Origin: an uncultured Bacteroidales bacterium
GTDB taxonomy: Bacteria; Bacteroidota; Bacteroidia; Bacteroidales; VadinHA17
NCBI GenBank assembly: GCA_963789465.1
Contig: CAWBLL010000016.1
Span: 135,544-199,543 of the forward strand
Length of the DNA stretch: 64,000 nucleotides
Direction of reading: 5' to 3'
Under the pieces are notes generated by a model. It was not told the DNA's origin and did not search any database. It was given only the letters and a program-made list of their open reading frames with translations. The position numbers and the translations under genes were made by a program. Positions 11,751-64,000 of this stretch are shown here, one piece after another. Each line of letters begins with the position of its first letter. Position 1 is the stretch's first letter.

Positions 11751-13097
11751 ATGAAAAAGATAATCCTATCTGCTCTAATATTGACAATTCTGTTGGGTGG
11801 GTGCGGCTCCTCGAAGAATAACGGGGAACTTACCGGCGTTCAGGGAAGAAAAAGATTCTTCGAACCGGAACCATTCGAAATGGCATTTATTCCTGCCGGT
11901 AATTTCATGATGGGGCCCAGCGACCAGGATGCTGTTTTTGCGATGAACAGCATCTCTAAATCTGTTACCGTGGAAGCCTTCTGGATGGACCAGACCGAAA
12001 TAACCAATAACAAATACCGCCAGTTTGTTAACTATGTCCGCGATTCCATATTCAGAACTAAACTGGGTAATGCAGGCATTCCTGACCGGGAATATTTTAT
12101 AGTTGACAAGGAGGGGAATGTTATTGAACCCAATGTGATCAACTGGAATGAAAAGATAGATCCCGAAGAGGAAACAACCAAAGGGGTTCTCGAAGAGATG
12201 CTTTATCCACCGGAAGAAAGATTCAACGGGAAAATACAGGTAGATGTAAGGAAACTGAACTATTCATATTTCTGGGTAGACTATCAGCAGGCTGCTAAAG
12301 CTACTTACAAATATGATTATGTAAACAATACCGGCAAATACGAAGGACAGGTGACCAATATAGATGGCAGCCGTACTGATGTAAAGGACCGTTCATCATT
12401 TATCAAACACGGCATAATAAACGTTTATCCCGATACTCTCTGCTGGATCAGAGACTTTACCTATTCATTCAATGACCCACAGTCAGATCTCTATTTCTGG
12501 CACCCCTCCTTTGATGATTATCCTGTTGTCGGAGTTTCATGGGTACAGGCTACTGCTTTCAGTATCTGGAGGACAGACTATATGAACTCTGCACTCCGGA
12601 AGAATGACATTGCTGATGTTCAGAGTTACAGGCTGCCCCTCGAAACCGAATGGGAATACGCTGCAAGGGGAGGCCTTGATCTCTCAATGTATCCATGGGG
12701 CGGACCTTATACACGAAATTACAAAGGCTGTTTCCTGGCTAATTTTAAACCTCTGCGCGGTAACTATATCGACGACGGCAACGTTTATGCCGGGAAAGTT
12801 GGATCTTATGAACCCAACGAATTTGGATTGTACGATATGGCAGGAAACGTTGCAGAATGGACCTGCTGTGCTTACCACCCTTCTGCCTATATGTTCCAGC
12901 ATGACCTTCAGCCCAACTATGAATACAATGCAACACCACAGGATCCGCCAATCATGAAAAGAAAGGTGATCCGCGGAGGATCATGGAAAGATATTGCATA
13001 TTTTCTTCAGACAAGTACAAGAGACTTTGAATATCAGGATTCTGCAAAATCCTATGTGGGATTCAGAAATGTAAGGTCTTATATTGGAGTGAATTAA
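11751..13097 (+). CDS. gldK: gliding motility / T9SS lipoprotein GldK (PorK)
   Basis: 448 aa. Lipobox (LLGGCGS) and SUMF1/FGE-type domain (RGGSW, WEYAARGG). It is first in the K-L-M-N order. Confidence 0.9.
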   Translation: MKKIILSALILTILLGGCGSSKNNGELTGVQGRKRFFEPEPFEMAFIPAGNFMMGPSDQDAVFAMNSISKSVTVEAFWMDQTEITNNKYRQFVNYVRDSIFRTKLGNAGIPDREYFIVDKEGNVIEPNVINWNEKIDPEEETTKGVLEEMLYPPEERFNGKIQVDVRKLNYSYFWVDYQQAAKATYKYDYVNNTGKYEGQVTNIDGSRTDVKDRSSFIKHGIINVYPDTLCWIRDFTYSFNDPQSDLYFWHPSFDDYPVVGVSWVQATAFSIWRTDYMNSALRKNDIADVQSYRLPLETEWEYAARGGLDLSMYPWGGPYTRNYKGCFLANFKPLRGNYIDDGNVYAGKVGSYEPNEFGLYDMAGNVAEWTCCAYHPSAYMFQHDLQPNYEYNATPQDPPIMKRKVIRGGSWKDIAYFLQTSTRDFEYQDSAKSYVGFRNVRSYIGVN

Positions 13098-13129: not shown

Positions 13130-14026
13130 ATGAGCCTAGCAGAAATAGTACAAAGCAGCGGTTGGAAAAATTTTATATCCAAACTTTATGGTTTGGGTGC
13201 TTCAGTCGTTATCGTCGGTGCATTATTTAAAATACAGCACTGGCCATTGGCAGGAACAATGCTGACAATCGGTCTTCTTACCGAAGCAGTGATCTTCTTC
13301 TTTTCTGCCTTTGAACCGCTACATGAAGAAATCGACTGGTCACTGGTATACCCTGAACTTGCAGGAATACCTGAAGACGAGACCGGAGAACTTGGCGCTC
13401 AGCAGGGAAAATACTCAGGATCCATTTCCACCGGAGGTGGCGGCGGCGGCGGATATGGTGGTGGTTCAGGTGCAGTTGCCCTGGCAAAATTCGATGAGAT
13501 GCTCGAGAATGCTGATATCTCACCCGACCTTTTTATGAAGCTCGGTGCAGGAATGAAAAAACTAAGCGACTCCACAGCCAACATTACAGCAATGGGAGAT
13601 ATCTCCTTAGCTTCTTCCAAATATATGAACACAATAAACGGTGCCAACGAGTCTCTCGGAAAACTCTCTGATTCATACCAGTCTACCGCAAAAATAATAA
13701 ATGAAACAGGGTCAACATACAGGAATATGGCAGACTCCCTTTCTTCAATCGAGATGGGAGGAAAATCATACCAGCAACAACTTGAAACACTCAACAAAAA
13801 CCTTTCTGCCCTTAATGCTGTCTATGAACTTCAACGCAAGGGAGCAGATGAGCACATAAAAGAATCGGATAATCTATACAGAGGCATCCAGGGTTTAATG
13901 AAAGACCTTTCGGATTCTTCCGGAGATGCTAAAAAATACCGTGAACAGATAACCAAACTCAGTGACAACCTGGCAGCATTGAATAATGTATATGGCAACA
14001 TGCTCTCTGCTATGAATGTTAAATAG
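13130..14026 (+). CDS. gldL: gliding motility / T9SS protein GldL (PorL)
   Basis: 298 aa. Two N-terminal TM helices (GASVVIVGALFKIQHWP, LLTEAVIFFFSAFEP) and a coiled C-terminus. Position in the operon fits. Confidence 0.85.
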   Translation: MSLAEIVQSSGWKNFISKLYGLGASVVIVGALFKIQHWPLAGTMLTIGLLTEAVIFFFSAFEPLHEEIDWSLVYPELAGIPEDETGELGAQQGKYSGSISTGGGGGGGYGGGSGAVALAKFDEMLENADISPDLFMKLGAGMKKLSDSTANITAMGDISLASSKYMNTINGANESLGKLSDSYQSTAKIINETGSTYRNMADSLSSIEMGGKSYQQQLETLNKNLSALNAVYELQRKGADEHIKESDNLYRGIQGLMKDLSDSSGDAKKYREQITKLSDNLAALNNVYGNMLSAMNVK

Positions 14027-15687: not shown

Positions 15688-16512
15688 ATGAATAAGAAAA
15701 TTCTTTTTGGAATTATCTCCCTTCTATTATCAGGTGTTGTCAATGCCCAGAGCTTCGGCGATATTTATGAGAAAAACCTTCCCGATGCCAAGAAGATAGA
15801 TTACCCCTACCTCAGGGAAGCCGATGTTATCTGGTCAAAAAAGATGTACAGGCTGATAGATCTCAGAGAAAAGATGAATCAACCTCTGTATTATCCTACA
15901 CAGCCAACTCTCGATGGCAGGAAAAACCTTATAAACATCCTGCTCGATGAGATCAAGGCTGGCAGGCTTACGGCATATGATCCCCTGACCCCTACTGTCA
16001 ATACTACTTACTCCGATATAGAAGGCAAAATGGGAGCTGTAAGTAAAACGGAATCAATAACCATTAATGCAGAGGGGCTAACCAGGGATACCATCATTAA
16101 ACAGGATGCCAAACCGGAAGAGGTCAAACAGATACTTCTGTATGAAGAGTGGTATTTTGATAAAAAGCTCTCAAAATTGGATGTCAGAATAATCGGCATA
16201 CAACCATATTATATGGGTTATGATGAACAGTTGGGCTATGTCCTCAGGAAACCCTTGTTCTGGATAAAATATGACGACGCAAGGGATGCCCTGGCAAAAC
16301 AGGAAGTATATATGTACAGTAATGATGCCCAGAGAATTTCATATGATGATCTGTTCATGCAGAGACGATTCGGAAGTACTATTCAGGGAGAATCAAATGT
16401 TTACAATGACAGGAGAATCTCCGAATACGAAGTAGGTAAAAGCGCCCTGTTTGAAGCTGAACGAATTAAAAACGAACTATTTGACTTTGAACATGATCTC
16501 TGGGAATATTAA
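15688..16512 (+). CDS. gldN: gliding motility / T9SS protein GldN (PorN)
   Basis: 274 aa with a signal peptide. Last gene of the K-L-M-N cluster. Confidence 0.85.
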
Positions 16513-37341: not shown

Positions 37342-37514
37342 TGATTTTGTATTTTCAATTTTTTTTACGTTCTTTGCATCCATTATATGATGGTGGACAG
37401 ATTTGAGCTGATTGCAACCACGGGAAAAAATGCTAAACCGCGTATGATTTCCTTTTATATATCGACTTAAAAATCCCCCACCTGTTTACTTACTAAAATT
37501 TAATATTAGGTATT

Positions 37515-47368: not shown

Positions 47369-47490
47369 TTAATTAATAAGAAGCTGGTTGGAAATCATAT
47401 TCCCTGCCTGCACATGCGCATAGGCATGAGCGGCATAATGAAGTTGTTGTGAGTGAGATGAATTGAATCCATTGTTTCAGTGTTAAATTT

Positions 47491-47597
47491 TTATTATCTC
47501 CCGGCTCTCCGGGATTAGGTTTTGGCACCGTTCTCCTTTTCTGAAGGAGTGGTTGCCAGGGTTTCACAGAGCCTAATCTCTTCACCCTTCTTAATAA
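47491..47597 (-). promoter_or_regulatory. SAM-I (S-box) riboswitch aptamer upstream of metY-hom-metH-metF
   Basis: The minus strand reads TTATTAAGAAGGGTGAAGAGATTAGGCTCTGTGAAACCCTGGCAACCACTCCTTCAGAAAAGGAGAACGGTGCCAAAACCTAATCCCGGAGAGCCGGGAGATAATAA. Elements: P1 TTATTA/TAATAA, GA kink-turn motifs, GGCAACC...GGTGCC (P3), P4 TCCCGG-AGAG-CCGGGA, and P2-loop TTAGG able to pair with CCTAA in J3/4. Confidence 0.85.
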
Positions 47598-47640
47598 AAA
47601 CCAAACACCCTTAAAGGAAGGAATATTTGATTTGTGGGAC

Positions 47641-49556: not shown

Positions 49557-49916
49557 ATGAAGAGAAAAATAATCCCATATAACCCTCATTTAAAAGATCT
49601 TGCAAAGGAGCTAAGAAGAAATATGACACTTTCTGAAGTATTATTATGGAAGGAACTTAGAAATAAAAATATGCTGGGTTATGATTTTGACAGGCAACGC
49701 CCGATAGGAAACTTTATAGTCGACTTTTATTGCAAAGATCTTGCCCTGGCTATTGAAATAGATGGCGACACACATATTTACAGATATGATTATGATGAAG
49801 AAAGACAAGAAGTTCTTGAAAAATCAGGGGTCAATTTCTTAAGATTTGAAGATATTGAAGTAAAAAAGAACATGATAAATGTCTTAAGGGTGATTGCGGA
49901 TTGGATTGAAAAAAAT
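49557..49916 (+). other. DUF559 (Vsr-like endonuclease fold) domain-coding portion of the long ORF
   Basis: About 120 aa match the usual stand-alone DUF559 protein length and motif order. No stop codon follows. Confidence 0.7.
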
Positions 49917-52751
49917 CAACCCACCCCTGACCCCTCCCAGGAGGGGAACCCTAAAGATGATAATCCGGCTAAAATGAATAAACCCACCCCTGACCACTCC
50001 AAGGAGGGGAACCCCAAAGATGATAATCCGGCTAAAATGATTAAACCCACCCCTGACCACTCCCAGGAGGGGAACCCTGAAGAAGGTAATCCGGCTAAAA
50101 TGATTAAACCCACCCCTGACCACTCCCAGAAGGGGAACCCTAAAGAAGATAATCCGGCTAAAATGATTAAACCCACCCCTGACCACTCCCAGGAGGGGAA
50201 CTCTAAAGAAGATAATCCGGTTAAAATGATTAAACCCACCCCTGACCACTCCCAGGAGGGGAACCCTAAAGAAGATAATCCGGCTAAAATGATTAAACCC
50301 ACCCCTGACCACTCCCAGGAGGGGAACCCTAAAGAAGATAATCCGGCTAAAATGATTAAACCCACCCCTGACCACTCCCAGAAGGGGAACCCTGAAGAAG
50401 GTAATCCGGCTAAAATGATTAAACCCACCCCTGACCACTCCCAGAAGGGGAACCCTAAAGATGATAATCCGGCTAAAATGATTAAACCCACCCCTGACCC
50501 CTCCCAGGAGGGGAACCCTAAAGAAGATAATCCGGCTAAAATGAATAAACCCACCCCTGACCACTCCCAGGAGGGGAACCCTAAAGAAGATAATCCGGCT
50601 AAAATGATTAAACCCACCCCTGACCACTCCCAGAAGGGGAACCCTAAAGAAGATAATCCGGCTAAAATGATTAAACCCACCCCTGACCACTCCCAGGAGG
50701 GGAACCCTGAAGAAGATAATCCGGCTAAAATGATTAAACCCACCCCTGACCACTCCCAGGAGGGGAACCCTAAAGAAGATAATCCGGCTAAAATGAATAA
50801 ACCCACCCCTGACCACTCCCAGGAGGGGAACCCTAAAGAAGATAATCTGTCGAAAATGAATAAACCAACAACTGCCCCATCCCAGGGAGACCACAGGGGA
50901 TATAAATATGTTTCTCCGACTATCATGGTCGGCAACGTCGCTCTTGGCGCTACCCACCCCATCCGTATCCAGTCGATGACAAATACAGACACTCTCGATA
51001 CTGATGCTTCTGTTGCCCAATGCATAAGAATCATTGAGGCAGGAGCTGATTTTGTGAGGCTTACAGCCCAGGGAGTCAGGGAGGCCGAGAACCTTGCCGC
51101 AATAAAGAAGGAACTGAGGAAAGCAGGATTCGACAATCCTCTGATTGCCGATATACATTTCAATCCAATGGCAGCTGAGACGGCTGCCCGGATCGTGGAA
51201 AAAGTAAGGATCAATCCGGGTAACTATGCCGATAAAAGAGCGACTTTCATAAACACTGACCTTACAGATGAGCAGTATAATGAAGAGCTTGAAAGAATAC
51301 ATGAAAAACTTCTGCCCCTGATAAATATCTGCAGGGAAAATAAAACTGTAATACGTATTGGAATAAACCATGGATCATTATCCGACCGTATAATGACCCG
51401 TTACGGAAATACCCCTTCGGGAATGGTTGTTTCCGCAATGGAATTCATAAAGATCTTCAGGAGCGAAAATTTTAATGATCTCGTGCTGTCGATGAAATCC
51501 TCAGATACCTCGGTCATGATAGAAGCGACCAGGCTTCTTGTTGGTGAATTGCAGGAAAGCGGATTGTCATATCCGCTTCATCTGGGTGTTACCGAAGCCG
51601 GGGAAGGAGAAGACGGAAGGATCCGCTCAGCAGCAGGGATAGGAGCCCTTCTTGCAGAAGGTATCGGCGATACGATCAGGATCTCCCTGTCGGAAGATCC
51701 GGAGTTTGAAATTCCGGTTGCAAAAAAACTAGCTGGCTATTATCCCAGGGATATAGCTGGCACAAACCAGGCAGGACCAATAGTTTATAAAACACCTGCA
51801 ATAAAACCGGATATCCTCAGGAGCGTTTCCGGTCCACTTGTAGTAATGAATATGACTTCCTATCCGGATTTTGACATAAAGGGCTACAGGGATGCCGGCT
51901 TCAATATAAATGAAAATTCAGGTGAGATCAAAAAAACTGACAGCTCGGCTGATTTCATTATCACCAGGGATGTACCCCGGATCTTGCCCGATGACGTTTC
52001 GATCATCCTTCCATTTAAAAAATGGTATGACCAGAAGGAAAATGAAAAGCTGTTTCCATTGTTCTCCCCTGAAACTTACCATGATGCTGCATTCAGGTCC
52101 CCCAAACTGAATTTTCTGCTTACCGGGTCACACTTTGACATCAGGTATCTCATGAAACCTGATCCTATGATAACGGTCATTGTATTTACCTTCAATCCCG
52201 ACACTGAAAAATATGCCCCTGACAAGTTTCTCAAAACCCTCGAAGAAAATAATCTTAACCACAATGTTCTCCTGAATCCGGTATTCCATGAAGCGGATTC
52301 CGACGATCTGAGGATAAAAGCGGCCGCACTTCTTGGCCGGTTCGTAATTGACAAAAGAGTAGCAGGGATATGTCTCCATAATATAGGCGAGATCAGCATG
52401 AAGGATGTAACGGCTATTTCATTTTCCATTCTCCAGTGCACAGAGACACGGATAACCAGAACATTGTATTTGTCGTGCCCAACATGCGGCCGCACAAAAT
52501 TCAATCTCCCGGAATCAGTCAGAAAAGTAAAGGAAGCTACAAGTCACCTCAAGGGTTTGAAAATTGCAGTTATGGGATGTATCGTTAACGGACCCGGCGA
52601 GATGGCAGGATCGGATTACGGATATGTAGGTGCTGCAGATGGCAAGGTACATATTTATCGCGGTACTGTTCCTGTACTGAAGAATATTCCGGAAAGTGAT
52701 GCGGCAGGTGAGTTGCTGAAGCTTATTGAACGGGACCTCTCAGGAAGCTGA
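49557..52751 (+). CDS. ispG: single open frame joining a DUF559 endonuclease-like domain, fifteen 21-aa repeats and IspG (HMBPP synthase)
   Basis: The 1064-aa ORF has no stop between its parts. N-terminus: LRRNMTLSEVLLWKELRN...FDRQRPIGNFIVDFYC...AIEIDGDTH...FLRFEDIEV (DUF559 pattern). Then the KPTPDHSQEGNPKEDNPAKMI repeats. Then PIRIQSMTNTDT...IADIHFNP...INPGN...CPTCGRT...GCIVNGPGE (IspG). Confidence 0.7.
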   Translation: MKRKIIPYNPHLKDLAKELRRNMTLSEVLLWKELRNKNMLGYDFDRQRPIGNFIVDFYCKDLALAIEIDGDTHIYRYDYDEERQEVLEKSGVNFLRFEDIEVKKNMINVLRVIADWIEKNQPTPDPSQEGNPKDDNPAKMNKPTPDHSKEGNPKDDNPAKMIKPTPDHSQEGNPEEGNPAKMIKPTPDHSQKGNPKEDNPAKMIKPTPDHSQEGNSKEDNPVKMIKPTPDHSQEGNPKEDNPAKMIKPTPDHSQEGNPKEDNPAKMIKPTPDHSQKGNPEEGNPAKMIKPTPDHSQKGNPKDDNPAKMIKPTPDPSQEGNPKEDNPAKMNKPTPDHSQEGNPKEDNPAKMIKPTPDHSQKGNPKEDNPAKMIKPTPDHSQEGNPEEDNPAKMIKPTPDHSQEGNPKEDNPAKMNKPTPDHSQEGNPKEDNLSKMNKPTTAPSQGDHRGYKYVSPTIMVGNVALGATHPIRIQSMTNTDTLDTDASVAQCIRIIEAGADFVRLTAQGVREAENLAAIKKELRKAGFDNPLIADIHFNPMAAETAARIVEKVRINPGNYADKRATFINTDLTDEQYNEELERIHEKLLPLINICRENKTVIRIGINHGSLSDRIMTRYGNTPSGMVVSAMEFIKIFRSENFNDLVLSMKSSDTSVMIEATRLLVGELQESGLSYPLHLGVTEAGEGEDGRIRSAAGIGALLAEGIGDTIRISLSEDPEFEIPVAKKLAGYYPRDIAGTNQAGPIVYKTPAIKPDILRSVSGPLVVMNMTSYPDFDIKGYRDAGFNINENSGEIKKTDSSADFIITRDVPRILPDDVSIILPFKKWYDQKENEKLFPLFSPETYHDAAFRSPKLNFLLTGSHFDIRYLMKPDPMITVIVFTFNPDTEKYAPDKFLKTLEENNLNHNVLLNPVFHEADSDDLRIKAAALLGRFVIDKRVAGICLHNIGEISMKDVTAISFSILQCTETRITRTLYLSCPTCGRTKFNLPESVRKVKEATSHLKGLKIAVMGCIVNGPGEMAGSDYGYVGAADGKVHIYRGTVPVLKNIPESDAAGELLKLIERDLSGS
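49917..50861 (+). repeat. 63-bp tandem repeat, 15 full units plus a degenerate 16th
   Basis: The unit is AAACCCACCCCTGACCACTCCCAGGAGGGGAACCCTAAAGAAGATAATCCGGCTAAAATGATT. 15 x 63 = 945 nt, counted unit by unit in the translation. Variants (H/P, E/K, D/E/G, I/N) are shuffled among the units. Confidence 0.95.
50856..52751 (+). CDS. ispG: IspG core from the last in-frame ATG of the repeat tract (candidate native start)
   Basis: MNKPTTAPSQGDHRGYKYVSPTIMVGNVALGATHPIRIQSMTN.... The distance from this Met to PIRIQSMT matches the usual IspG N-terminus. This is an alternative reading of the previous CDS. Confidence 0.5.
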   Translation: MNKPTTAPSQGDHRGYKYVSPTIMVGNVALGATHPIRIQSMTNTDTLDTDASVAQCIRIIEAGADFVRLTAQGVREAENLAAIKKELRKAGFDNPLIADIHFNPMAAETAARIVEKVRINPGNYADKRATFINTDLTDEQYNEELERIHEKLLPLINICRENKTVIRIGINHGSLSDRIMTRYGNTPSGMVVSAMEFIKIFRSENFNDLVLSMKSSDTSVMIEATRLLVGELQESGLSYPLHLGVTEAGEGEDGRIRSAAGIGALLAEGIGDTIRISLSEDPEFEIPVAKKLAGYYPRDIAGTNQAGPIVYKTPAIKPDILRSVSGPLVVMNMTSYPDFDIKGYRDAGFNINENSGEIKKTDSSADFIITRDVPRILPDDVSIILPFKKWYDQKENEKLFPLFSPETYHDAAFRSPKLNFLLTGSHFDIRYLMKPDPMITVIVFTFNPDTEKYAPDKFLKTLEENNLNHNVLLNPVFHEADSDDLRIKAAALLGRFVIDKRVAGICLHNIGEISMKDVTAISFSILQCTETRITRTLYLSCPTCGRTKFNLPESVRKVKEATSHLKGLKIAVMGCIVNGPGEMAGSDYGYVGAADGKVHIYRGTVPVLKNIPESDAAGELLKLIERDLSGS

Positions 52752-57026: not shown

Positions 57027-57926
57027 ATGAGAAACTTTATTTTGAAAATAGCAGGTTACAGCATAGGTTTTGAGGCATCTGCCGGCGGACCTGACCTTGC
57101 CGTTGCTCCAAAATTTCTCAGAAATATCAGTCATAATTCACACTTTGATGTCCTTATAAAAGTCCATTCCGGACCTTATATCCTGCCCCCGGATGCCGAA
57201 CGGGTTTTCCATGCCCCATTTGTGGAGGAGAGATATGGGATCCTTATCCATAATAATCCCGATTTCTGGAGTGTATGGAAGCATAATTCCCTCCTCTTCA
57301 TAAAAACTATTTTTCCTCTTTCGGAATATCCCAAAAATGCAGTACTCAGATTTTCCGTCTCGGAAAAGGTATGGGACCTTTGGATGGAAACTGATAAACC
57401 CGAGACAGATCCTATTGAGTATCCTCTTGATGGCCTGATACTTTACTATCTCACTGTTATCAACAATGATATAATGATACATGCTTCCGGCGTAAATTAT
57501 AACGGAAAGGGATACCTCTTCAGCGGAGTCTCCGGGAAAGGAAAATCGACAATGGCCAGGCTCTGGGCAGACCACCAGGCCATCGTAATTCATGATGACA
57601 GACTCATAATCAGAAAATCAGGATATGGGTATATAATGTATAACACCCCCATTTATAATACTGATCAGCCTCTCAACTCAGAGCTCAGCAGGATCTTCAT
57701 TATTGAACATGGAAATGAAAACAGGCTGATCCGGCTTAAAGGGGCCTCTGCTGTCAGCCATGTGATGGCGAATTGTATTCAGCATACATGGGGACCTGCA
57801 ATAGTTTCAGTGCTGCTGGAATCCGTATCTGAAATGTGCAACTTAATTCCCGTTTACAGGCTTCTCTTCATGCCGGAAAAAAGTGTAATTGATAATATAC
57901 TAAAGTTAGATGAGCAATCCGGATAA
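57027..57926 (+). CDS. HPr-kinase-like (HprK C-terminal domain-like) P-loop protein
   Basis: 299 aa. MIHASGVNYNGKGYLFSGVSGKGKSTMA resembles the HprK P-loop context. Confidence 0.65.
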   Translation: MRNFILKIAGYSIGFEASAGGPDLAVAPKFLRNISHNSHFDVLIKVHSGPYILPPDAERVFHAPFVEERYGILIHNNPDFWSVWKHNSLLFIKTIFPLSEYPKNAVLRFSVSEKVWDLWMETDKPETDPIEYPLDGLILYYLTVINNDIMIHASGVNYNGKGYLFSGVSGKGKSTMARLWADHQAIVIHDDRLIIRKSGYGYIMYNTPIYNTDQPLNSELSRIFIIEHGNENRLIRLKGASAVSHVMANCIQHTWGPAIVSVLLESVSEMCNLIPVYRLLFMPEKSVIDNILKLDEQSG

Positions 57927-58357
57927 AAGGAAGATAGTTAAAGATACAGGACTGACTCTTCTCTCAGAAGGTAAAACGATCCGTATAAAAGCTCACGGCT
58001 ACAGCATGTATCCATGCATTAAACCAGGCTCCCTGGTACTTATTGAACCAATTAACCTGAAAGGGCCTCCGGTTCCGGGAGAGATCATCGCGATATCAAG
58101 AAAAGACGGCATGATAATCCATCGTCTTGAGAAAATACTTACAACAGGTAAGTGCCAAAAAGTACATTGCAAGAGGCGACAGCAACGCATTTGCAGACCC
58201 TCCCGTTACACTTGACAAGATTGCAGGAAGGATTGCAGGCGCTGAGACAACAGGAGAAAACCCTCTTCCGGCTGACATCAGGATCAATACAAGACCTTTC
58301 CATTTTATAAACAGACTAAGAGTTATCGGCTTGCACTTATGGAAGAAATTAAAGTAA
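57910..58357 (+). pseudogene. S24/S26-family peptidase, interrupted by an apparent 1-nt insertion in an A5 run (58157-58161)
   Basis: Fragment 1 has AHGYSMYPCIKPGSLVLIEP (Ser nucleophile motif). The +1 frame continues KYIARGDSNAFADPPVTLDKIAGRIAG (GDN-type motif). The span is 448 nt (3n+1). Confidence 0.7.
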
Positions 58358-60159
58358 GGATCATGCAGAATATCCGAAAAAAAACACGTCTGTTCCGGGA
58401 ATCCATCCTTCTGGTCTGGAAGAGTTCTCCGGTCTGGGCGACTGCAAATATCCTGATATCGGTTCTCAGAAGTTTTCTTCCACTGATCCTTATCTGGCTG
58501 TTAAAGGTTCTCATCGATGATATCAGCGCTGCAGCAGCAAATGGATCAGGAATTGTTTCAGGAAACCTTCTCCGTATGATCATAGCAGTTGTGACGGTAT
58601 ATTTTATTGATGAAGGGCTGTCTGACCTCAGCAATTTCATCAGGAAGAAGCAGGCACTTAAACTTGAAGTCTACATGTATGACCTTCTTCATATAAAGTC
58701 AGTGAAGCTTGATCTGATTAACTTTGAAAAGCCTGAATATTTTGATTGCCTGTCACGCGCCACAAGAGAAGCGCCCTGGCGACCCAATTCCATCCTGAAC
58801 AACCTTGTTGCCTTTCTTCGGGGACTCATCTCACTGCTTCTTATGGCCGGACTTATACTAACACTGAACTGGGCAATTGCAGTTGTTCTTCTTGTTGCCA
58901 ACATACCTGCTATATGGCTTCGGCTTCATTATGCCGGGATACTTTATAATTTTCAAAGAGAACAGACACCCGAGGCGCGGAAATCAGCATATTTCAACTG
59001 GCTGCTTACCGGAGAGAGGCCATCCAGAGAAATAAGGCTTTTCGGATTGGGTAACTATTTCATCAATCTTTTTAAAAAATCGTTTATAAAGCAAAAAGAG
59101 GATGAAATAGCAATTATCCGCAAAAGAACTGCTATTGAACTTGTTTCTGACCTTTTCAAGGCTTCTGCCTTTCTGGTCACATTATGGTATATCGCACAGA
59201 AAACTACCACAGGAAGCCTTTCCATCGGGCAGATGGCAATGTTCCTGCTTGCATTCAGACAGGGAATGATGTATATCAAGGATCTCTTCAGCTCGATGGC
59301 AGGACTTTATGAAGACAGCCTTTTCATTGAAGATACATTCGAGTTCCTCGAACTCGAGGAGAATATCAAAGCTGAAAGTCCGGTATCGGTGCCATCAACA
59401 CTACAGAGAAATATAGTTGTCGAAAATCTGTCTTTCACCTATCCGGGCAATAACCGGAAAACATTAAATAATATCTCGTTTGAAGTGGGGAAAGGAGAAG
59501 TTATTGCTCTTGTCGGGCCCAATGGAGCTGGAAAGAGTACACTGGCAAGGATTTTATGCAGGCTTTATGATCCGGATTCAGGTTCAGTAATTTATGACGG
59601 GCAGAATATAAAAAACATGAACCCCGATGAATACAGGAAATTCTTCTCTGTCGTTTTTCAGGATTTTATGCTTTACAACCTCAATGCAGGCGAGAATATC
59701 AGGATGGGCAATATCGATGAAGAAACCGGTAGCGACAAAATACGGTCCGCTGCAGTAAATGCCGGTATTGATGAGCTCATCTCCGGTCTTCCGGACGGAT
59801 ACGACACCCCTATAGGAAATCTGTTTGACAACAGCAGGGAACTGAGCTGGGGAGAATGGCAGAAGATAGCTATTGCCAGGGCTCTCTTCAGGGAGGCGCC
59901 TGTTCTAATTCTCGATGAACCATCAAGCTCCCTCGATGCCGATACGGAATATGAGATTTTTAGCCGGTTCAGGGAGATTGTCAAAGGGCGCACTTCAATA
60001 TTAATCAGTCACAGGTTTGTCAATGTGAGCCTCGCCGACAGGATCATCGTACTTGATAAGGGATCAGTGATCGAAACCGGGACACATGATAAACTGATGG
60101 ACAATGGCGGTTTATACAGCAAAATGTTCATGAAACAAAGCAGCCGCTTCAACAATTAG
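58339..60159 (+). CDS. ABC exporter, fused permease and ATPase
   Basis: 606 aa. Six-TM N-terminal half, then Walker A GPNGAGKST, LSWGEWQKIAIARA and ILDEPSS. Confidence 0.85.
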   Translation: MEEIKVRIMQNIRKKTRLFRESILLVWKSSPVWATANILISVLRSFLPLILIWLLKVLIDDISAAAANGSGIVSGNLLRMIIAVVTVYFIDEGLSDLSNFIRKKQALKLEVYMYDLLHIKSVKLDLINFEKPEYFDCLSRATREAPWRPNSILNNLVAFLRGLISLLLMAGLILTLNWAIAVVLLVANIPAIWLRLHYAGILYNFQREQTPEARKSAYFNWLLTGERPSREIRLFGLGNYFINLFKKSFIKQKEDEIAIIRKRTAIELVSDLFKASAFLVTLWYIAQKTTTGSLSIGQMAMFLLAFRQGMMYIKDLFSSMAGLYEDSLFIEDTFEFLELEENIKAESPVSVPSTLQRNIVVENLSFTYPGNNRKTLNNISFEVGKGEVIALVGPNGAGKSTLARILCRLYDPDSGSVIYDGQNIKNMNPDEYRKFFSVVFQDFMLYNLNAGENIRMGNIDEETGSDKIRSAAVNAGIDELISGLPDGYDTPIGNLFDNSRELSWGEWQKIAIARALFREAPVLILDEPSSSLDADTEYEIFSRFREIVKGRTSILISHRFVNVSLADRIIVLDKGSVIETGTHDKLMDNGGLYSKMFMKQSSRFNN

Positions 60160-60380: not shown

Positions 60381-60517
60381 CTGGAGTCATGACAATGAAT
60401 CACTGATTATCTTCATTTTAATAGTAATTTTTTTGCAAAAAAGTTTTTTTGTTTAAAAATATTTTGTTTAATTTTATAGTGATGTTGCTAGTCAAATAGG
60501 TTTATCATTTAAGGAAG

Positions 60518-60727
60518 ATGAACAAGTTCAGAAAAGAGACTCTGAAAGTCCGGCTTTTAAAACTTGCTGAACTGAAGTGCACAGGGGCGCCTGCAGATCT
60601 GGCTTTAAGATTTGAAATCAGTGAGCGTCATGTCAAGAGAATTGTCAAGGAGATCCGGGATGACGGTACTGAGATTTGGTACAGTCCGACAAGGAGGTCA
60701 TATATTACTGGGGAAGAGTATCAATAG
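60518..60727 (+). CDS. small HTH-domain protein (YafY/DeoR N-terminal-like)
   Basis: 69 aa. LLKLAELKCTGAPADLALRFEISERHVKRIVKEIRDDG is a helix-turn-helix pattern. Confidence 0.55.
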   Translation: MNKFRKETLKVRLLKLAELKCTGAPADLALRFEISERHVKRIVKEIRDDGTEIWYSPTRRSYITGEEYQ

Positions 60728-60960
60728 TCAAAAAAAAATGTGATTTTTTGATTATTATGTCCCCGGCTCTTTTTAAAATTGTATTAGCAATGAGATATAT
60801 CCTGTTCTTCTCACTAAAATGAATATTATGACTTAGTGTTTTGAGATTTGAGGGGTTATGTTTACTCAGGGCTTCGTTTTTTCCAGGGCAAGTCTCGCTG
60901 CATTCCGTGCTAATGCGGGTTCTTGATGAACTGCCGGTCTCCTAGGCCGACGACCCCACT

Positions 60961-60996
60961 CCCCGGGAAATGATCCAACATTTTCCGGGGTTTTTT
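60961..60996 (+). terminator. intrinsic terminator
   Basis: CCCCGGGAAAT-GATCCAAC-ATTTTCCGGGG (11-nt arms with one mismatch) followed by TTTTTT. Confidence 0.65.
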
Positions 60997-61083
60997 ATGT
61001 CTGGACTAAAACCATTACATTATATGAAGCTGATTGGAATGGCAGGTGTCCCCTGAAAGTGATAAGAAATATATCAACAAGAA

Positions 61084-61284
61084 CTATTTTGCATTATTGA
61101 TTTTACGGATCTCCATATACATGGCCACTGCCCCGAGAAGACATATAAAAGTCATAAAAATAGTCAGAAAGAGATTCCTTCCAGAGGGGCTGAAAATGAG
61201 GATAAATGTGAACAGGAGAATTGAAATAGTGAGGTTAGCAGTGAGGAGTATCTTGTACAAAAGTAATTTGCTCATAAGGCTCAA
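61084..61284 (-). CDS. possible small two-TM hydrophobic protein
   Basis: 66-aa ORF (TTG at 61284, or ATG at 61274 giving MSKLLLYKILL...). It has two hydrophobic stretches. There is no family match or conservation evidence. Confidence 0.25.
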   Translation of the reverse strand: MSLMSKLLLYKILLTANLTISILLFTFILIFSPSGRNLFLTIFMTFICLLGAVAMYMEIRKINNAK

Positions 61285-61460
61285 TTTTTATCAGTAATAA
61301 TTCCGTTTTTTCACATTTTCCAGTATCATGATTCCTTGATCAGGGTTAGATGCCCGGTCTTTAATAATTTTCATCACAAAGGTAAAGAAAGGAGTTCTAA
61401 ATCGTACAATCTGATGTAGGATTATGTAATAATTATGAACCAGTAAGCCGGCCTGATTAC

Positions 61461-64000
61461 GGGCTGAAGCCCGGACTTAGAGGACCCTCCCCTGATCACT
61501 CTCTGCCCGGAGACCTGTCATACTGATCGCCGCTCCGCCGGCCAGGGCAGTGGTCCCAGCATGTAAGCAGCTCTGCCTGACAAACGCCGGGCTTCAGCCC
61601 GGTGTTGACGATCGCCAGCATGGGTTGGGCTTTAGCCCGGAACAAGCATGGGATGATGACAGTCCCTGGTGGATCCCATCTCCACCATGGCACTCCTTGA
61701 AGAGAGTCACTGCCTGGGGGTTAGGATGTCCGGGCTGAAGCCCGGACTTAGAAGACTCTCCCCATATCACTCTCTGTCCGGATAGCTGTCATACTGATCG
61801 CCGCTCCGCCGGCCAGGGCAGTGGTCCCAGCATGTAAGCAGCTCTGCCTGACAAACGCCGGGCTTCAGCCCGGTGTTGACGATCGCCAGCATGGGTTGGG
61901 CTTTAGCCCGGAACAAGCATGGGATGATGACAGTCCCTGGTGGATCCCATCTCCACCACGGCACTCCTTGAAGAGAGTCACTGCCTGGGGGTTAGTATAT
62001 CCGGGCTGAAGCCCGGACTTAGAGGACCCTCCCCTGATCAATCTCTGCCCGGATAGCTGTCATACTGATCGCCGCTCCGCCGGCCAGGGCAGTGGTCCCA
62101 GCATGTAAGCAGCTCTGCCTGACAAACGCCGGGCTTCAGCCCGGTGTTGACGATCGCCAGCATGGGTTGGGCTTTAGCCCGGAACAAGCATGGGATGATG
62201 ACAGTCCCTGGTGGATCCCATCTCCACCACGGCACTCCTTGAAGAGAGTCACTGCCAGGGGGTTAGTATGTCCGGGCTGAAGCCCGGACTTAGAGGATCC
62301 TCTCCTGATCAATCTCTGCCCGGAGAGCTGTCATACTGATCGCCGCTCCGCCGGCCAGGGCAGTGGTCCCAGCATGTAAGCAGCTCTGCCTGACAAACGC
62401 CGGGCTTCAGCCCGGTGTTGACGATCGCCAGCATGGGTTGGGCTTTAGCCCGGAACAAGCATGGGATGATGACAGTCCCTGGTGGATCCCATCTCCACCA
62501 TGGCACTCCTTGAAGAGAGTCACTGCCAGGGGGTTAGTATGTCCGGGCTGAAGCCCGGACTTAGAGGACTCTCCCCATATCACTCTCTGCCCGGAGAGCT
62601 GTCATACTGATCGCCGCTCCGCCGGCCAGGGCAGTGGTCCCAGCATGTAAGCAGCTCTGCCTGACAAACGCCGGGCTTCAGCCCGGTGTTGACGATCGCC
62701 AGCATGGGTTGGGCTTTAGCCCGGAACAAGCATGGGATGATGACAGTCCCTGGTGGATCCCATCTCCACCATGGCACTCCTTGAAGAGAGTCACTGCCAG
62801 GGGGTTAGTATGTCCGGGCTGAAGCCCGGACTTAGAGGACTCTCCCCATATCACTCTCTGCCCGGAGAGCTGTCATACTGATCGCCGCTCCGCCGGCCAG
62901 GGCAGTGGTCCCAGCATGTAAGCAGCTCTGCCTGACAAACGCCGGGCTTCAGCCCGGTGTTGACGATCGCCAGCATGGGTTGGGCTTTAGCCCGGAACAA
63001 GCATGGGATGATGACAGTCCCTGGTGGATCCCATCTCCACCACGGCACTCCTTGAAGAGAGTCACTGCCAGGGGGTTAGTATGTCCGGGCTGAAGCCCGG
63101 ACTTAGAGGACCCTCCCCATGATCACTCTCTGCCCGTAGAGCTGTCATACTGATCGCCGCTCCGCCGGCCAGGGCAGTGGTCTCAGCATGTAAGCAGCTC
63201 TGCCTGACAAACGCCGGGCTTCAGCCCGGTGTTGACGATCGCCAGCATGGGTTGGGCTTTAGCCCGGAACAAGCATGGGATGATGACAGTCCCTGGTGGA
63301 TCCCATCTCCACCATGGCACTCCTTGAAGAGAGTCACTGCCAGGGGGTTAGTATGTCCGGGCTGAAGCCCGGACTTAGAGGACCCTCCCCATATCACTCT
63401 CTGCCCGTAGAGCTGTCATACTGATCGCCGCTCCGCCGGCCAGGGCAGTGGTCCCAGCATGTAAGCAGCTCTGCCTGACAAACGCCGGGCTTCAGCCCGG
63501 TGTTGACGATCGCCCGCATGGGTTGGGCTTTAGCCCGGAACAAGCATGGGATGATGACAGTCCCTGGTGGATCCCATCTCCACCATGGCACTCCTTGAAG
63601 AGAGTCACTGCCAGGGGGTTAGTATGTCCGGGCTGAAGCCGGACTTAGAGGACCCTCCCCATATCACTCTCTGCCCGTAGAGCTGTCATACTGATCGCCG
63701 CTCCGCCGGCCAGGGCAGTGGTCCCAGCATGTAAGCAGCTCTGCCTGACAAACGCCGGGCTTCAGCCCGGTGTTGACGATCGCCAGCATGGGTTGGGCTT
63801 TAGCCCGGAACAAGCATGGGATGATGACAGTCCCTGGTGGATCCCATCTCCACCACGGCACTCCTTAAAGAGAGTCACTGCCAGGGGGTTAGTATGTCCG
63901 GGCTGAAGCCCGGACTTAGAGGACTCTCCCCATATCACTCTCTGTCCGGATAGCTGTCATATTGATCGCCGCTCCGCCGGCCAGGGCAGTGGTCCCAGCA
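61461..64000. repeat. tandem array with a ~271-bp period, 9 full units plus a partial 10th, truncated by the window end
   Basis: The GGGCTGAAGCCCGG landmark occurs at 61461, 61732, 62003, 62274, 62545, 62816, 63087, 63359, 63630 and 63900. Units are near-identical outside one short variable segment. Confidence 0.97.

Follow-up and report, generated by a model that had tools for sequence, protein, structure and literature searches.

A tandem array of REP-like hairpins in a Bacteroidales genome and its probable link to a Y1 transposase locus

The substrates of Y1 HUH enzymes are hairpins formed by single-stranded DNA. Tandem REPIN clusters beside the genes of REP-associated tyrosine transposases (RAYTs) are already known in Pseudomonas. 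In P. fluorescens SBW25 a REPIN cluster repeated in tandem, flanks included, is reported next to every RAYT gene, along with tandem arrays of 12 REPs (PMC3116915); the inverted hairpins of the doublets and of the GI-GIII arrays are spaced by 110-112 bp (Bertels & Rainey 2011, PMC3116915). Passages of Di Nocera et al. 2013 (PMC3733652) describe REP clusters tandemly reiterated with flanking DNA, as well as REPtrons. Among the TnpA_Y1 proteins, subclass 1.2 is defined by the motif Y---Q--HH and is low-copy and not IS-like (Quentin et al. 2018, PMC6006769). This subclass is said to generally lack the typical terminal secondary structures of IS200, and the table of that study gives it no REP type (PMC6006769). 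Here we describe an array of 271-bp units at the end of a 64-kb window (the whole stretch of DNA that was analysed, 64,000 nt) from an uncultured member of the Bacteroidales. This array is likely to be a cluster of REP-like DNA hairpins that was amplified in tandem; it is similar to BIMEs and REPINs and would belong to a resident Y1 (HUH, IS200/IS605-superfamily) transposase locus.

Architecture of the array and its hairpins

Tandem Repeats Finder, run on the window, delimited a repeat at 61460-64000 with a period of 271, 9.4 copies, 97% matches and a score of 4814. Unit starts anchored on GGGCTGAAGCC were located at 61461, 61732, 62003, 62274, 62545, 62816, 63087, 63359, 63630 and 63900, with spacings of six times 271, then 272, 271 and 270 nt. 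Both results agree with the period and the nine copies plus 101 nt given by the original prediction, made from the letters of the sequence. The array runs off the window, as had been noticed there, so the copy count in the window is a lower bound. The G+C content of the units is 0.59-0.61, compared to 0.38-0.49 in the remainder of the window, and the array reaches 60% G+C against 43% for the Bacteroidales host chromosome; the earlier estimate of about 60 percent for unit 62545-62815 was borne out by measurement (Table 1).

Table 1. Positions in the window of the array, its components and its left flank
Feature	Position	Strand	Description	Basis
Tandem array	61460..64000	.	9 full 271-bp units and 101 nt of a tenth; continues past the window edge	Tandem Repeats Finder, unit starts, alignment
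Reference unit	62545..62815	+	271 nt, G+C 0.601	hairpin map, alignment
Left junction of array	61459..61461	.	unique flank ...CCTGATTA joins CGGGCTGAAGCCCGG at the 5' foot of the first H1	
H1	61728..61747	+	GTCCGGGC-TGAA-GCCCGGAC, then CTTAG; every 271 nt	
Hypervariable segment	62564..62601	+	38 nt directly 3' of H1, unit columns 20-57; equivalent in each unit	
Double hairpin (DH, H2 + H3)	61583..61644	+	every 271 nt; homologous to the relatives' DH at the Y1 stop codon	
H2	61583-61606	+	AACGCCGGGC-TTCA-GCCCGGTGTT; 20-nt spacer separates H2 from H3	
H3	61627-61640	+	GGGC-TTTA-GCCCGG	
H4	61664..61690	+	CCCTGGTGGA-TCCCATC-TCCACCA(T/C)GG	
GC-rich structured stretch	60860..60996	+	terminator-like hairpin at its end (60961-60990 and T run); conserved flank, outside the array	
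Small hydrophobic ORF, 65 aa	61084..61281	-	kept in relatives; left edge of the slot holding their Y1 gene and hairpins	

The unit is laid out as H1, a hypervariable segment, a spacer of about 112 nt, H2, 24 nt, H3 and a linker of about 90 nt that contains a further hairpin, H4. Three copies of the palindrome CCGGGC-NNNN-GCCCGG are present in each unit, H1 in one orientation and H2 and H3 in the opposite one. Since H1 is inverted relative to H2 and H3, it can form an inverted doublet with H3 when the DNA is single-stranded: the two are 93% complementary over 15 nt and, when the segment from H1 to H3 was folded as single-stranded DNA, H1 paired with H3 with z = -3.4, none of 200 shuffles being as stable. 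H1 and H3 thereby have the property that characterizes a REPIN, an inverted REP doublet able to form a long hairpin. The sequence GGGCTNNAGCCC occurs 27 times in the window, every time within the array, against 0.05 occurrences expected by chance. The secondary structures that had been read from the letters were all recovered: CCGGGCTGAAGCCCGG at 61730-61745 and its reverse complement at 61858-61873, GGGCTTTAGCCC, TGGTGGA-TCCCATC-TCCACCA (61667-61687), and the long-range complements CTGTCAT/ATGACAG (61515-61521 and 61656-61662) and ACTCTCT/AGAGAGT (61498-61504 and 61701-61707). About 20 nt upstream of H4, ATGGGAT complements its loop; comparison with the relatives' loci revealed no homologue of H4 outside the window.

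The internal junctions seen in the unit alignment consist of ...TATGTC followed by CGGGCTGAAG. Sequence variation between units is concentrated directly 3' of H1, where 12 of the array's 20 variable columns fall in the hypervariable segment (12/38 vs 8/234, Fisher p = 6e-7, for a region chosen post hoc). A CTCTC/GAGAG hairpin with compensatory changes was considered within this segment and rejected, the variants being non-compensatory in the alignment inspected by eye. A higher-order repeat of 8 units was likewise rejected, as a single similar distant pair (61732 and 63900) is insufficient. No frame is open beyond 65 codons in the array, the placeable changes in its 62-aa ORF alter the amino acid, and a six-frame translation of the unit had no relative among 5.8 billion protein clusters. 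BLAST detected no further unit copies in the window outside the array, and nothing relevant was found in viral contigs.

A Y1 gene amid the same hairpins in relatives

Relatives were found through homologues of the ABC transporter (73-84% identity), which gave nine loci with the gene order of the window in related Bacteroidales. The left flank is shared with them: window 60453-61275 is 76.6-76.7% identical at the DNA level to loci L122, L123 and L124, and the GC-rich stretch, located downstream of a 69-aa HTH-like ORF (60518-60727), is also present in L122, L128, L186 and L227. Rfam searches of this flank at E<=1 gave chance-level matches alone. In 8 of the 9 loci the slot that follows the ABC-transporter gene and the small ORFs contains a Y1_Tnp (PF01797) gene on the minus strand (L122, L123, L125, L126, L127, L128, L226, with two Y1 copies 2 kb apart, and L227); in L228 the gene is at another position, 5 kb further on. 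The hairpin-linked type of Y1 was found in 5 of the 8 slot loci. A different paralogue (about 30% identity), devoid of such hairpins, fills the same slot in L125-L127, and the slot could therefore be no more than a hot spot for insertions.

In the relatives the hairpin-linked Y1 gene is flanked by GGGCTNNAGCCC hairpins, which are usually tandemly iterated and are inverted across the gene, with TTCA loops on one side and TGAA or TAAA loops on the other. In L122, for instance, one side has TTCA hairpins at 15396 and 15433 and the opposite side a TGAA hairpin at 15925; L128 shares this organization. The relatives' double hairpin abuts the 3' end of the Y1 gene, the TGA stop being inside a hairpin loop. 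The window's double hairpin (61583-61644) shows 80% identity to that of L122 (15390-15448, 16213-16273) and 73-81% identity to those of L128, L175, L186 and L226, and H1 has its counterpart in a 'REP-B' hairpin, CCCGGGCTGAAGCCCGG(G/A)CTTAG, beside the Y1 gene. Outside the hairpins no alignment with relatives was obtained except for two weak stretches beside H1 (62-68% identity); unit positions 1-142, a stretch that includes H1, are 62.5% identical to L175 over 144 nt. The 100-300 nt between hairpins are unrelated among relatives and the 112-nt spacer is without clear homologue. Neither a GTAG nor a CGTC tag is conserved next to the hairpins in the window and the relatives' loci: H2-type hairpins are preceded by ..ACAAAC, ..CATAAC, ..TATAAC or ..GTACAAC, and CGTC was seen on the minus strand in the window only.

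This association of hairpins and Y1 genes recurs in at least 10 independent loci, with 38-77% protein identity and in varied genomic places (among them L228, L034, L036 and L064). Solitary doublets also exist in other Bacteroidota genomes; L033, another Bacteroidales MAG, harbours a solitary four-hairpin element of the same architecture between divergent genes. GGGCTNNAGCCC is restricted to the array within the 64-kb window and to the Y1 locus within each relative locus of about 20 kb; in this limited sample of each genome, the dispersed high copy number that defines REPs was not seen.

The Y1 proteins of Bacteroidota loci (about 144 aa) are intact, and the motifs H-u-H and Y---Q--HH (Y113, Q117, H120, H121) are invariant in the 12 that were aligned. 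One such relatives' protein marginally passes the IS200/IS605 model of NCBIfam (NF033573, 56.5 bits vs a cut-off of 55) and stays well below the cut-off of the RAYT model (NF047646, 22 bits vs 80). The tyrosine motif ends in NQ..HH and not in the ..NP of class 2, and the best PDB matches are Deinococcus/ISDra2 TnpA (2fyx and 2xm3) followed by IS608 TnpA (2a6m). The relatives' genes, all from Bacteroidota, combine the Y---Q--HH motif, short core and low copy number of subclass 1.2, a subclass of Bacteroidetes or Cyanobacteria, and judged by these features their enzyme is of that type. A search of plasmids with the Y1 protein gave no match.

The array is read as a Y1-tied, REP/BIME/REPIN-like cluster because its hairpins are shared with the Y1 locus of relatives, the filler is not conserved and the stems covary, as described below. 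Since the gene itself is not in the window, its presence is deduced from synteny and hairpin homology: we infer a Y1 gene on the minus strand a little beyond 64000, where the array would end.

Searches with isolated hairpin sequences had a broader yield. The two-hairpin pattern in genome contigs returned, among the matches listed, REPIN-type elements of GC-rich Proteobacteria, Acidobacteria and others, which were rejected as homologues of the unit because the homology does not extend beyond the hairpin; some Bacteroidota matches among those listed adjoin Y1 homologues. The H2 24-mer was found at 97 metagenomic loci, of which only L174, L175 and L186 are of Bacteroidales type. About 92 of the 97 are contigs of 50-64% G+C and were set aside, the 24-mer belonging there to another dispersed family, in which a CTCATT hairpin is followed by AACCGTTTCAACGGTT hairpins.

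Tandem arrays in relatives and the origin of the array

Tandem iteration was observed in relatives with quite different units. L122 and L123, two independent assemblies of one relative, contain an identical array of 338 bp x 7.0 that terminates at the double hairpin and the Y1 gene. The repeats measure 147 bp x 3.4 in L128, 147 bp x 3.2 in L227 and 69 bp x 4 in L228; in L186 the double hairpin and a 3' fragment of Y1 are repeated about 180-200 nt apart, and in a distant Bacteroidia genome (L034) hairpin triplets of 199 bp x 3 immediately follow the Y1 homologue. Whole Y1 elements form head-to-tail tandems of 1126 bp in L125/L127 and of 911 bp in L126.

The agreement between L122 and L123 and the comparable arrays in many assemblies make it extremely unlikely that the array is an assembly artefact, for example a repeat that was collapsed, expanded or made chimeric when a long-read MAG was built. 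The differences between units are, moreover, substitutions common to several units and not random errors, although one unit lacks a single base in a C run, as is typical of long-read error. The far end of the array is not followed in the window, and the contig of L127 breaks inside its Y1 tandem. Exact-protein look-ups of two small flanking ORFs, seeking another assembly of the left junction, returned no record, and that of the ABC-transporter protein returned one 2.2-kb Logan contig, ending short of the array.

The original prediction had favoured an array of structured ncRNA modules, in which each unit would be transcribed and folded, possibly after processing from a multimeric precursor. 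Hairpin density points in this direction, as do three G-U wobble pairs of H2 and H3 on the plus strand only, the pseudoknot that the H4 loop and its upstream complement could make, and the near-invariance of 236 of the 271 nt between copies. The covariation analysis that had been proposed as a check was also positive: across 49 distinct hairpins the stems scored 0.244 compared to 0.183 ± 0.017 for shuffles, none of 500 being as high, and stem pair 7-18 was G-C 39 times and A-U 8 times. However, covariation of short palindromes is equally expected for single-stranded DNA hairpins recognised by Y1 enzymes. Folding of whole units barely beats shuffles (z = -1.9 and -1.7). Rfam 15 at gathering thresholds identified nothing in the array, its only matches in the whole window being two SAM riboswitches elsewhere, and a search of three and a half units at E<=10 yielded best matches at chance level (13-16 bits), in line with the earlier remark that the array could not be assigned to a familiar RNA family. 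The units are free of promoter- and terminator-like sites, except for a promoter-like match that is specific to one variant (minus strand, 63148-63119). Distant-mode blastn against phage and plasmid records gave no match, and a unit-specific 21-mer had no exact match in JGI metagenome contigs. Finally, relatives keep the hairpins only, with periods of 338, 147, 199 and 69 and unrelated filler. Taken together, these results make an ncRNA array very unlikely.

Could the array be an ordinary recombinational satellite, a GC-rich segment with terminator-like hairpins by chance, amplified by slippage or unequal crossing-over, with the Y1 gene as a bystander and hairpins acting at most as terminators or mRNA stabilisers? 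The units are 97% alike and their variants occur in shared blocks, as unequal exchange predicts; the GGGCTGAAGCCC/GGGCTTCAGCCC hairpin is very common across many phyla, and the double hairpin is at the 3' end of a gene, the expected place of a terminator. Yet no T run comes after the hairpins, so they do not resemble intrinsic terminators. Their association with divergent Y1 genes in different genomic places, and the repeated emergence beside the Y1 gene of arrays with the same hairpins and unrelated filler, render such a satellite, with Y1 as a bystander, unlikely.

The tandems of whole Y1 elements, together with the left boundary of the array at the foot of H1, would suit another origin, in which a non-autonomous, MITE- or PATE-like element of the IS200/IS605 type forms a head-to-tail multimer. 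Here a circular single-stranded copy bounded by hairpins would have re-inserted repeatedly beside the resident copy, the element end recreating the target site, and each 271-bp unit would be one transposition product and not a recombinational duplicate. The tandem junction of L186, which fuses a truncated Y1 3' fragment straight to the 5' flank of the double hairpin, is consistent with such events, as are the match of the relatives' Y1 to the IS200/IS605 model and the solitary module of L033. We nevertheless find this origin rather improbable: the flanking hairpins are inverted, as in the RAYT type, and are not the same-strand left- and right-end hairpins of IS200/IS605; no target tetranucleotide is conserved at the junctions; the variants common to non-adjacent units fit recombinational turnover equally well; and enzymes of the Y---Q--HH subclass are said to occur in low copy number and not to be IS-like (PMC6006769).

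For a REP-like cluster tied to a Y1 locus, the reading that we prefer, the hairpins would be the predicted recognition and cleavage sites of the Y1 enzyme on single-stranded DNA. The array might grow and shrink by Y1-mediated cleavage and rejoining near the resident copy, or because the repeated hairpins slip or recombine unequally; the enzyme and ordinary recombination both remain candidate makers of the array. The GC-rich filler would be passenger sequence carried along, and a cellular effect, putatively transcription termination or stabilisation of the 3' end of the Y1 mRNA, would be secondary, if any. An 'amplified mobile hairpin element' had been listed in the original prediction as an alternative to the ncRNA array. 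It is this alternative that fits the relatives, whose Y1 transposase gene is flanked by these hairpins, and the passing mention of 'ssDNA-forming' modules was nearly right, given that hairpins of single-stranded DNA are what Y1 HUH enzymes work on. The premise that no transposase is nearby holds for the window, in which tblastn with Y1 proteins gave no match, but is misleading: relatives carry a transposase directly after their arrays, which makes the premise an artefact of the window edge.

We also entertain, as a speculative and improbable extension, that the Y---Q--HH Y1 nucleases of Bacteroidota are domesticated, position-conserved builders of locus-restricted hairpin arrays with a cellular role. 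They might perform iterative, self-targeted cleavage and rejoining of single-stranded DNA, with the 38-nt segment beside H1 as the putative joining site, and the array could, for instance, provide single-stranded DNA or hairpin DNA, or regulate the RiPP and bacteriocin export clusters that flank it.

Comparison with known systems

If the preferred reading is true, the array is not a new RNA class but clearly exemplifies, for Bacteroidota, a hairpin array of REP/BIME-like type with a tie to a Y1 HUH nuclease. What is unusual here is the Y1 subclass, the phylum, the large unit, the fact that the hairpins were seen at one locus only and the hypervariable 38-nt segment. These loci would provide a natural series of arrays (units of 69, 147, 199, 271 and 338 bp) for the study of Y1- or hairpin-driven creation of tandem repeats. 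They also call for caution: such arrays break short-read assemblies and may be mistaken for novel ncRNA or CRISPR-like loci. Like CRISPR arrays, the array is regularly periodic, has a repeat element that is palindromic and contains one short variable segment per unit. CRISPR arrays, however, have a period of about 60-70 and unique spacers; this array repeats every 271 nt, and its variable segments are over 80% alike. The absence of unique spacers and cas genes had been correctly noted from the sequence: the variable segments are near-identical, and no cas-like domain was detected among the scanned window neighbours or in the gene tables of the relatives' loci.

IS200/IS605 elements and the derived PATEs/MITEs resemble these loci in their enzyme of the Y1 HUH superfamily, their hairpins at element ends and their gene-less modules (here L033). 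Unlike in IS200/IS605, the hairpins are inverted across the gene and not on the same strand, no target-site motif was identified, and the position of the Y1 gene is conserved across species whose neighbouring proteins are 73-84% identical.

The array resembles the REPIN/REP clusters of SBW25 and the BIMEs of E. coli in its layout, with short GC-rich palindromes in alternating orientation, tandemly repeated with their flanks. In the relatives, as in SBW25, the cluster adjoins a single-copy Y1 HUH gene flanked by inverted palindromes, a gene that at our locus would lie beyond 64000, and the inverted-hairpin spacing of 112 nt compares with the 110-112 bp of the SBW25 doublets. The unit is larger than in REPINs and BIMEs (271 bp, with three hairpins and about 200 nt of filler) and is present in at least 9 copies at one locus. 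In contrast to REPIN/RAYT systems, the relatives' enzyme is not a class-2 RAYT by its model score, the array has no GTAG tag, its hairpins were not seen dispersed in 61 kb of the host genome, and the host belongs to the Bacteroidota and not to the Proteobacteria. The REPtrons and TIRtrons presented in passages of PMC3733652 are also tyrosine-transposase genes decorated by REP-like palindromes, which sometimes overlap the 3' end of the gene; as quoted there, they include species without large dispersed REP families, and REP clusters tandem with flanking DNA. They differ from our locus in that no GTAG/CGTC is conserved here, and the size of the array and its 271-bp composite unit exceed those of the groups quoted.

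With the enzymes of TnpA_Y1 subclass 1.2 (PMC6006769) the relatives' Y1 shares the Y---Q--HH motif (YIxNQExHH in the relatives), an H-u-H motif, a length of about 144 aa, low copy number and occurrence in Bacteroidetes. In contrast to the description of the subclass (PMC6006769), REP-like hairpins and tandem hairpin arrays consistently flank the genes of the relatives. The Y---Q--HH subclass is without known substrate and was reported without flanking structures; these loci therefore supply candidate DNA substrates for it, namely H1 and the H2-H3 double hairpin.

Structure of the array and its chromosomal setting

The array is made of 271-bp units whose starts, anchored on GGGCTGAAGCC, fall at 61461, 61732 and so on to 63900. 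The first six spacings are 271, and those after them are 272, 271 and 270. Both the repeat and its period series, as given in the original prediction, were thus borne out by Tandem Repeats Finder and by anchoring, and all the hairpins and complements that it listed were found where it had placed them. Unit G+C is 59-61% compared to 38-49% across the remaining 61 kb of the window. All 27 occurrences of GGGCTNNAGCCC in the window lie within the array (expected 0.05), and BLAST found no extra copies of the unit elsewhere in the window. Look-ups of the two small flanking ORFs and of the ABC transporter turned up no second assembly spanning the array's left junction. The nine full units differ from one another mostly just 3' of hairpin H1, where 12 of 38 columns are variable compared to 8 of 234 elsewhere (Fisher p = 6e-7, for a region picked post hoc). 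These variants are common to non-adjacent units and are not compensatory.

The window is a stretch of bacterial chromosome with housekeeping genes (RNase R, GcpE/IspG, CysS, MetH, MetK, topoisomerase I and sigma-54) together with gliding and T9SS genes (GldM and a GldK-like FGE-sulfatase protein), the latter placing it in the Bacteroidota. Named homologues of the ABC transporter adjoining the array all come from Bacteroidales or Bacteroidia MAGs. Using this transporter, syntenic loci were retrieved from nine related assemblies (73-84% protein identity). They have in common with the window the order homoserine dehydrogenase, Cys/Met PLP enzyme, CysS, (DUF559), GcpE, RNase R, PqqD, ScmC, small ORF, ABC transporter, 69-aa HTH-like ORF and structured terminator region; in the nine loci this series is usually completed by a small minus-strand membrane ORF. 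The structured stretch, downstream of the HTH-like ORF, was present in every relative read; it had no Rfam match and might represent a small RNA that has escaped annotation, or part of a 3' UTR. In the relatives, the slot that follows is located between the RiPP-like cluster and a C39-peptidase ABC exporter with several 47-60-aa ORFs (bacteriocin-like); only the upstream cluster is visible in the window.

A second tandem repeat of the window, with a 63-bp unit, separates the DUF559 and GcpE domains of a single mechanical 1064-aa ORF. In relatives these are separate genes only about 20 nt apart, which gives the repeat the appearance of an in-frame insertion, either in the intergenic gap or next to it. 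An 88-bp x 2.3 repeat that contains a similar CCCTGGAGGGG motif lies a short way upstream of DUF559 in two relatives (L126 and L127).

Coordinates and repeat units of features in the window and in loci of related genomes or metagenomes (L-numbers)
Feature	Locus	Position	Description
271-bp array	window	61460-64000	period 271, 9.4 copies, 97% matches (Tandem Repeats Finder); runs off window end
H1	window	112 nt before H2	GTCCGGGC-TGAA-GCCCGGAC-TTAG
H2	window	within 61583-61644	AACGCCGGGC-TTCA-GCCCGGTGTT
H3	window	within 61583-61644, 20 nt after H2	GGGC-TTTA-GCCCGG
Hypervariable 38-nt segment	window	62564-62601 and equivalent in every unit	12 of the 20 variable columns of the array
Double hairpin	L122	15390-15448 and 16213-16273	80% identity to window 61583-61644 (H2-20 nt-H3)
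68-nt direct repeat	L122	12958-13025 and 16285-16352	88% identity
Tandem array	L122/L123		338-bp unit x 7.0, one hairpin each; two independent assemblies
Tandem array	L128		147-bp unit x 3.4 (double hairpin and linker), then gene, more hairpins and truncated second copy of gene 3' end
Recurring element	L186		double hairpin and Y1 3' fragment, about 180-200 nt apart
Tandem array	L227		147 bp x 3.2
Tandem array	L228		69 bp x 4
Tandem array	L034 (distant Bacteroidia genome)		Y1-A homologue (38% identity), then directly three 199-bp units of three hairpins each; among the pattern-scan matches listed
Y1-B tandems	L125; L127; L126	13383-15698; 13663-15262; 13539-15366
63-bp tandem repeat	window	49918-50866	15.1 copies, 95% alike (Tandem Repeats Finder); inside ORF 49557-52751
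RiPP-like cluster	window	57027-60159	PqqD-ScmC-small ORF-ABC transporter
ABC transporter	window	58339-60159
Structured stretch	window	60860-60996	GC-rich (..GGCA.GTCTCGCTGCATTCCGTGCT..), strong terminator at end
Its counterparts	L122; L128; L227; L186	12340-12490; about 12430-12570; 13580-13710; 
SAM-I riboswitch	window	47488-47600 (-)	upstream of Cys/Met PLP enzyme gene
SAM-II-type aptamer	window	37387-37446 (+)	upstream of metK

Y1 genes and related hairpins in the same slot

In eight of the nine relatives a minus-strand Y1_Tnp (PF01797) gene comes next in the slot; L228, the ninth, has its Y1 gene 5 kb further on. Two paralogues were distinguished, with about 30% identity to one another. 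Y1-A is carried by L122/L123, L128, L226, L227, L228 and the metagenome contigs L175 and L186, its proteins being 60-77% identical to that of L122. Y1-B is found in L125-L127 and has the motifs NHVH and YIANQESHH. It is repeated head to tail, with units of 1126 or 911 bp that lack GGGCTNNAGCCC hairpins; in L127 the contig terminates within this tandem. That different relatives hold two unrelated Y1 paralogues in the slot is as much an argument for a hot spot as for vertical inheritance. Y1-A proteins (about 144 aa, with H-u-H and Y---Q--HH both invariant) pass the NCBIfam IS200/IS605 model marginally (56.5, cut-off 55) and fail the RAYT model (22, cut-off 80); their nearest solved structures are the ISDra2 and IS608 TnpA proteins. 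The Y---Q--HH signature defines TnpA_Y1 subclass 1.2 (Quentin et al. 2018, PMC6006769).

Each Y1-A gene is surrounded by GGGCTNNAGCCC hairpins, which are absent from the rest of these roughly 20-kb loci. The double hairpin H2-H3 of the window matches one directly adjoining the 3' end of the Y1-A gene in L122, and equivalent elements in L128, L175, L186 and L226 with 73-81% identity. The last codons and TGA stop of Y1-A lie in the stem and loop of the hairpin on the coding strand (...F-T-G-stop in L122, ...F-P-G-stop in L128). H1 has its counterpart, in relatives, in a CCCGGGCTGAAGCCCGG(G/A)CTTAG hairpin on the opposite side of the gene, and the H1-112 nt-H2 layout has a weak one in L175 (62.5% over 144 nt). 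Nothing else of the unit aligned to the relatives' loci: the 112-nt spacer, the linker, and H4 together with its pseudoknot-like complement occur in the window array alone.

Tandem repetition recurs across these Y1/hairpin loci. In L122/L123 the array runs up to the double hairpin and the Y1 gene, and the gene itself lies within a final 823-bp repeat; no clustering of variation comparable to that of the window was seen in the L122 array. In L122, the closest relative, the direct repeat brackets the whole block of array and gene, which suggests that the block originated inside a larger duplicated unit or was inserted as one. The 271-bp unit is unusual, being large, of 60% G+C within a 43% genome, and built on filler unrelated to that of its sister arrays, which implies fast turnover or capture of passenger DNA.

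Folding, RNA and coding tests

For the covariation test, 49 distinct hairpins of 24 nt were collected from the window and from the Y1-A loci with a search pattern without forced pairing. At stem pair 7-18, 39 of them have G-C and 8 have A-U, and the covariation score of 0.244 exceeded that of shuffles (0.183 +/- 0.017, none of 500 as high) and of slid-partner controls (0.08-0.14). The hairpins are selected as hairpins. Folded as single-stranded DNA, the H1 to H3 region is predicted to pair H1 with H3 (z = -3.4, none of 200 shuffles as stable), resembling the inverted-doublet geometry of a REPIN.

The original prediction favoured structured non-coding RNA modules, a reading that these data do not support: the unit had no match in Rfam 15 on either strand, even at E<=10, and folded only slightly better than dinucleotide shuffles (z = -1.9 and -1.7). 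As for coding potential, no open frame in the array exceeds 65 codons, those substitutions that could be placed in a 62-aa ORF of the unit alter the amino acid, and a search of 5.8 billion predicted protein clusters with the unit's six-frame translation found no relative. Phage and plasmid collections held no sequence similar to the unit, and a unit-specific 21-mer had no exact match in JGI metagenome contigs.

A two-hairpin pattern scan of genomes gave listed matches dominated by unrelated REPINs. A solitary element with all four hairpins of the architecture (TAAA, TGAA ... TTCA, TTTA) stands between divergent genes of another Bacteroidales MAG (L033), and there are solitary doublets in Hymenobacter, Chitinophaga, Chryseobacterium, Cyclobacteriaceae and Bacteroides loci. 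An identical copy of the AAC(A/G)CCGGGCTTCAGCCCGGTGTT 24-mer was seen in a different, apparently dispersed hairpin family, in about 90 of the JGI contigs L129-L225 (50-64% G+C), with CTCATT before the 24-mer and AACCGTTTCAACGGTT-type hairpins about 15-20 nt after it.

Origin of the array and comparison with REP systems

On this comparative evidence, the array can best be understood as a cluster of REP-like hairpins that has been amplified in tandem and belongs to a Y1 HUH transposase locus. An amplified mobile hairpin element, put forward earlier as an alternative, appears essentially right, since in relatives the same hairpins flank the Y1-A gene. Judging from these relatives, the window's own Y1 gene is most probably a minus-strand gene just past the window end that has the array in its 3' flank. 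Both IS200/IS605 TnpA and E. coli TnpA-REP are known to bind single-strand DNA hairpins, and to cleave and rejoin nearby, which would offer a plausible route to local iteration of units. Repeated hairpins would give the same local iteration through ordinary slippage or unequal exchange. There is a small chance that the array points to a function of subclass 1.2 Y1 nucleases.

The Y1-A proteins differ in Y1 subclass from classical RAYTs. REPs are defined by dispersal, whereas the GGGCTNNAGCCC-type hairpins of the window lineage were seen at this one locus within the 64-kb window and the roughly 20-kb relative loci sampled. In P. fluorescens SBW25 every RAYT gene has a cluster of tandemly repeated REPINs beside it, and REPs also form tandem arrays of 12 with a 112/72-bp spacing (PMC3116915); a tandem hairpin cluster beside a transposase gene is an already known kind of structure.
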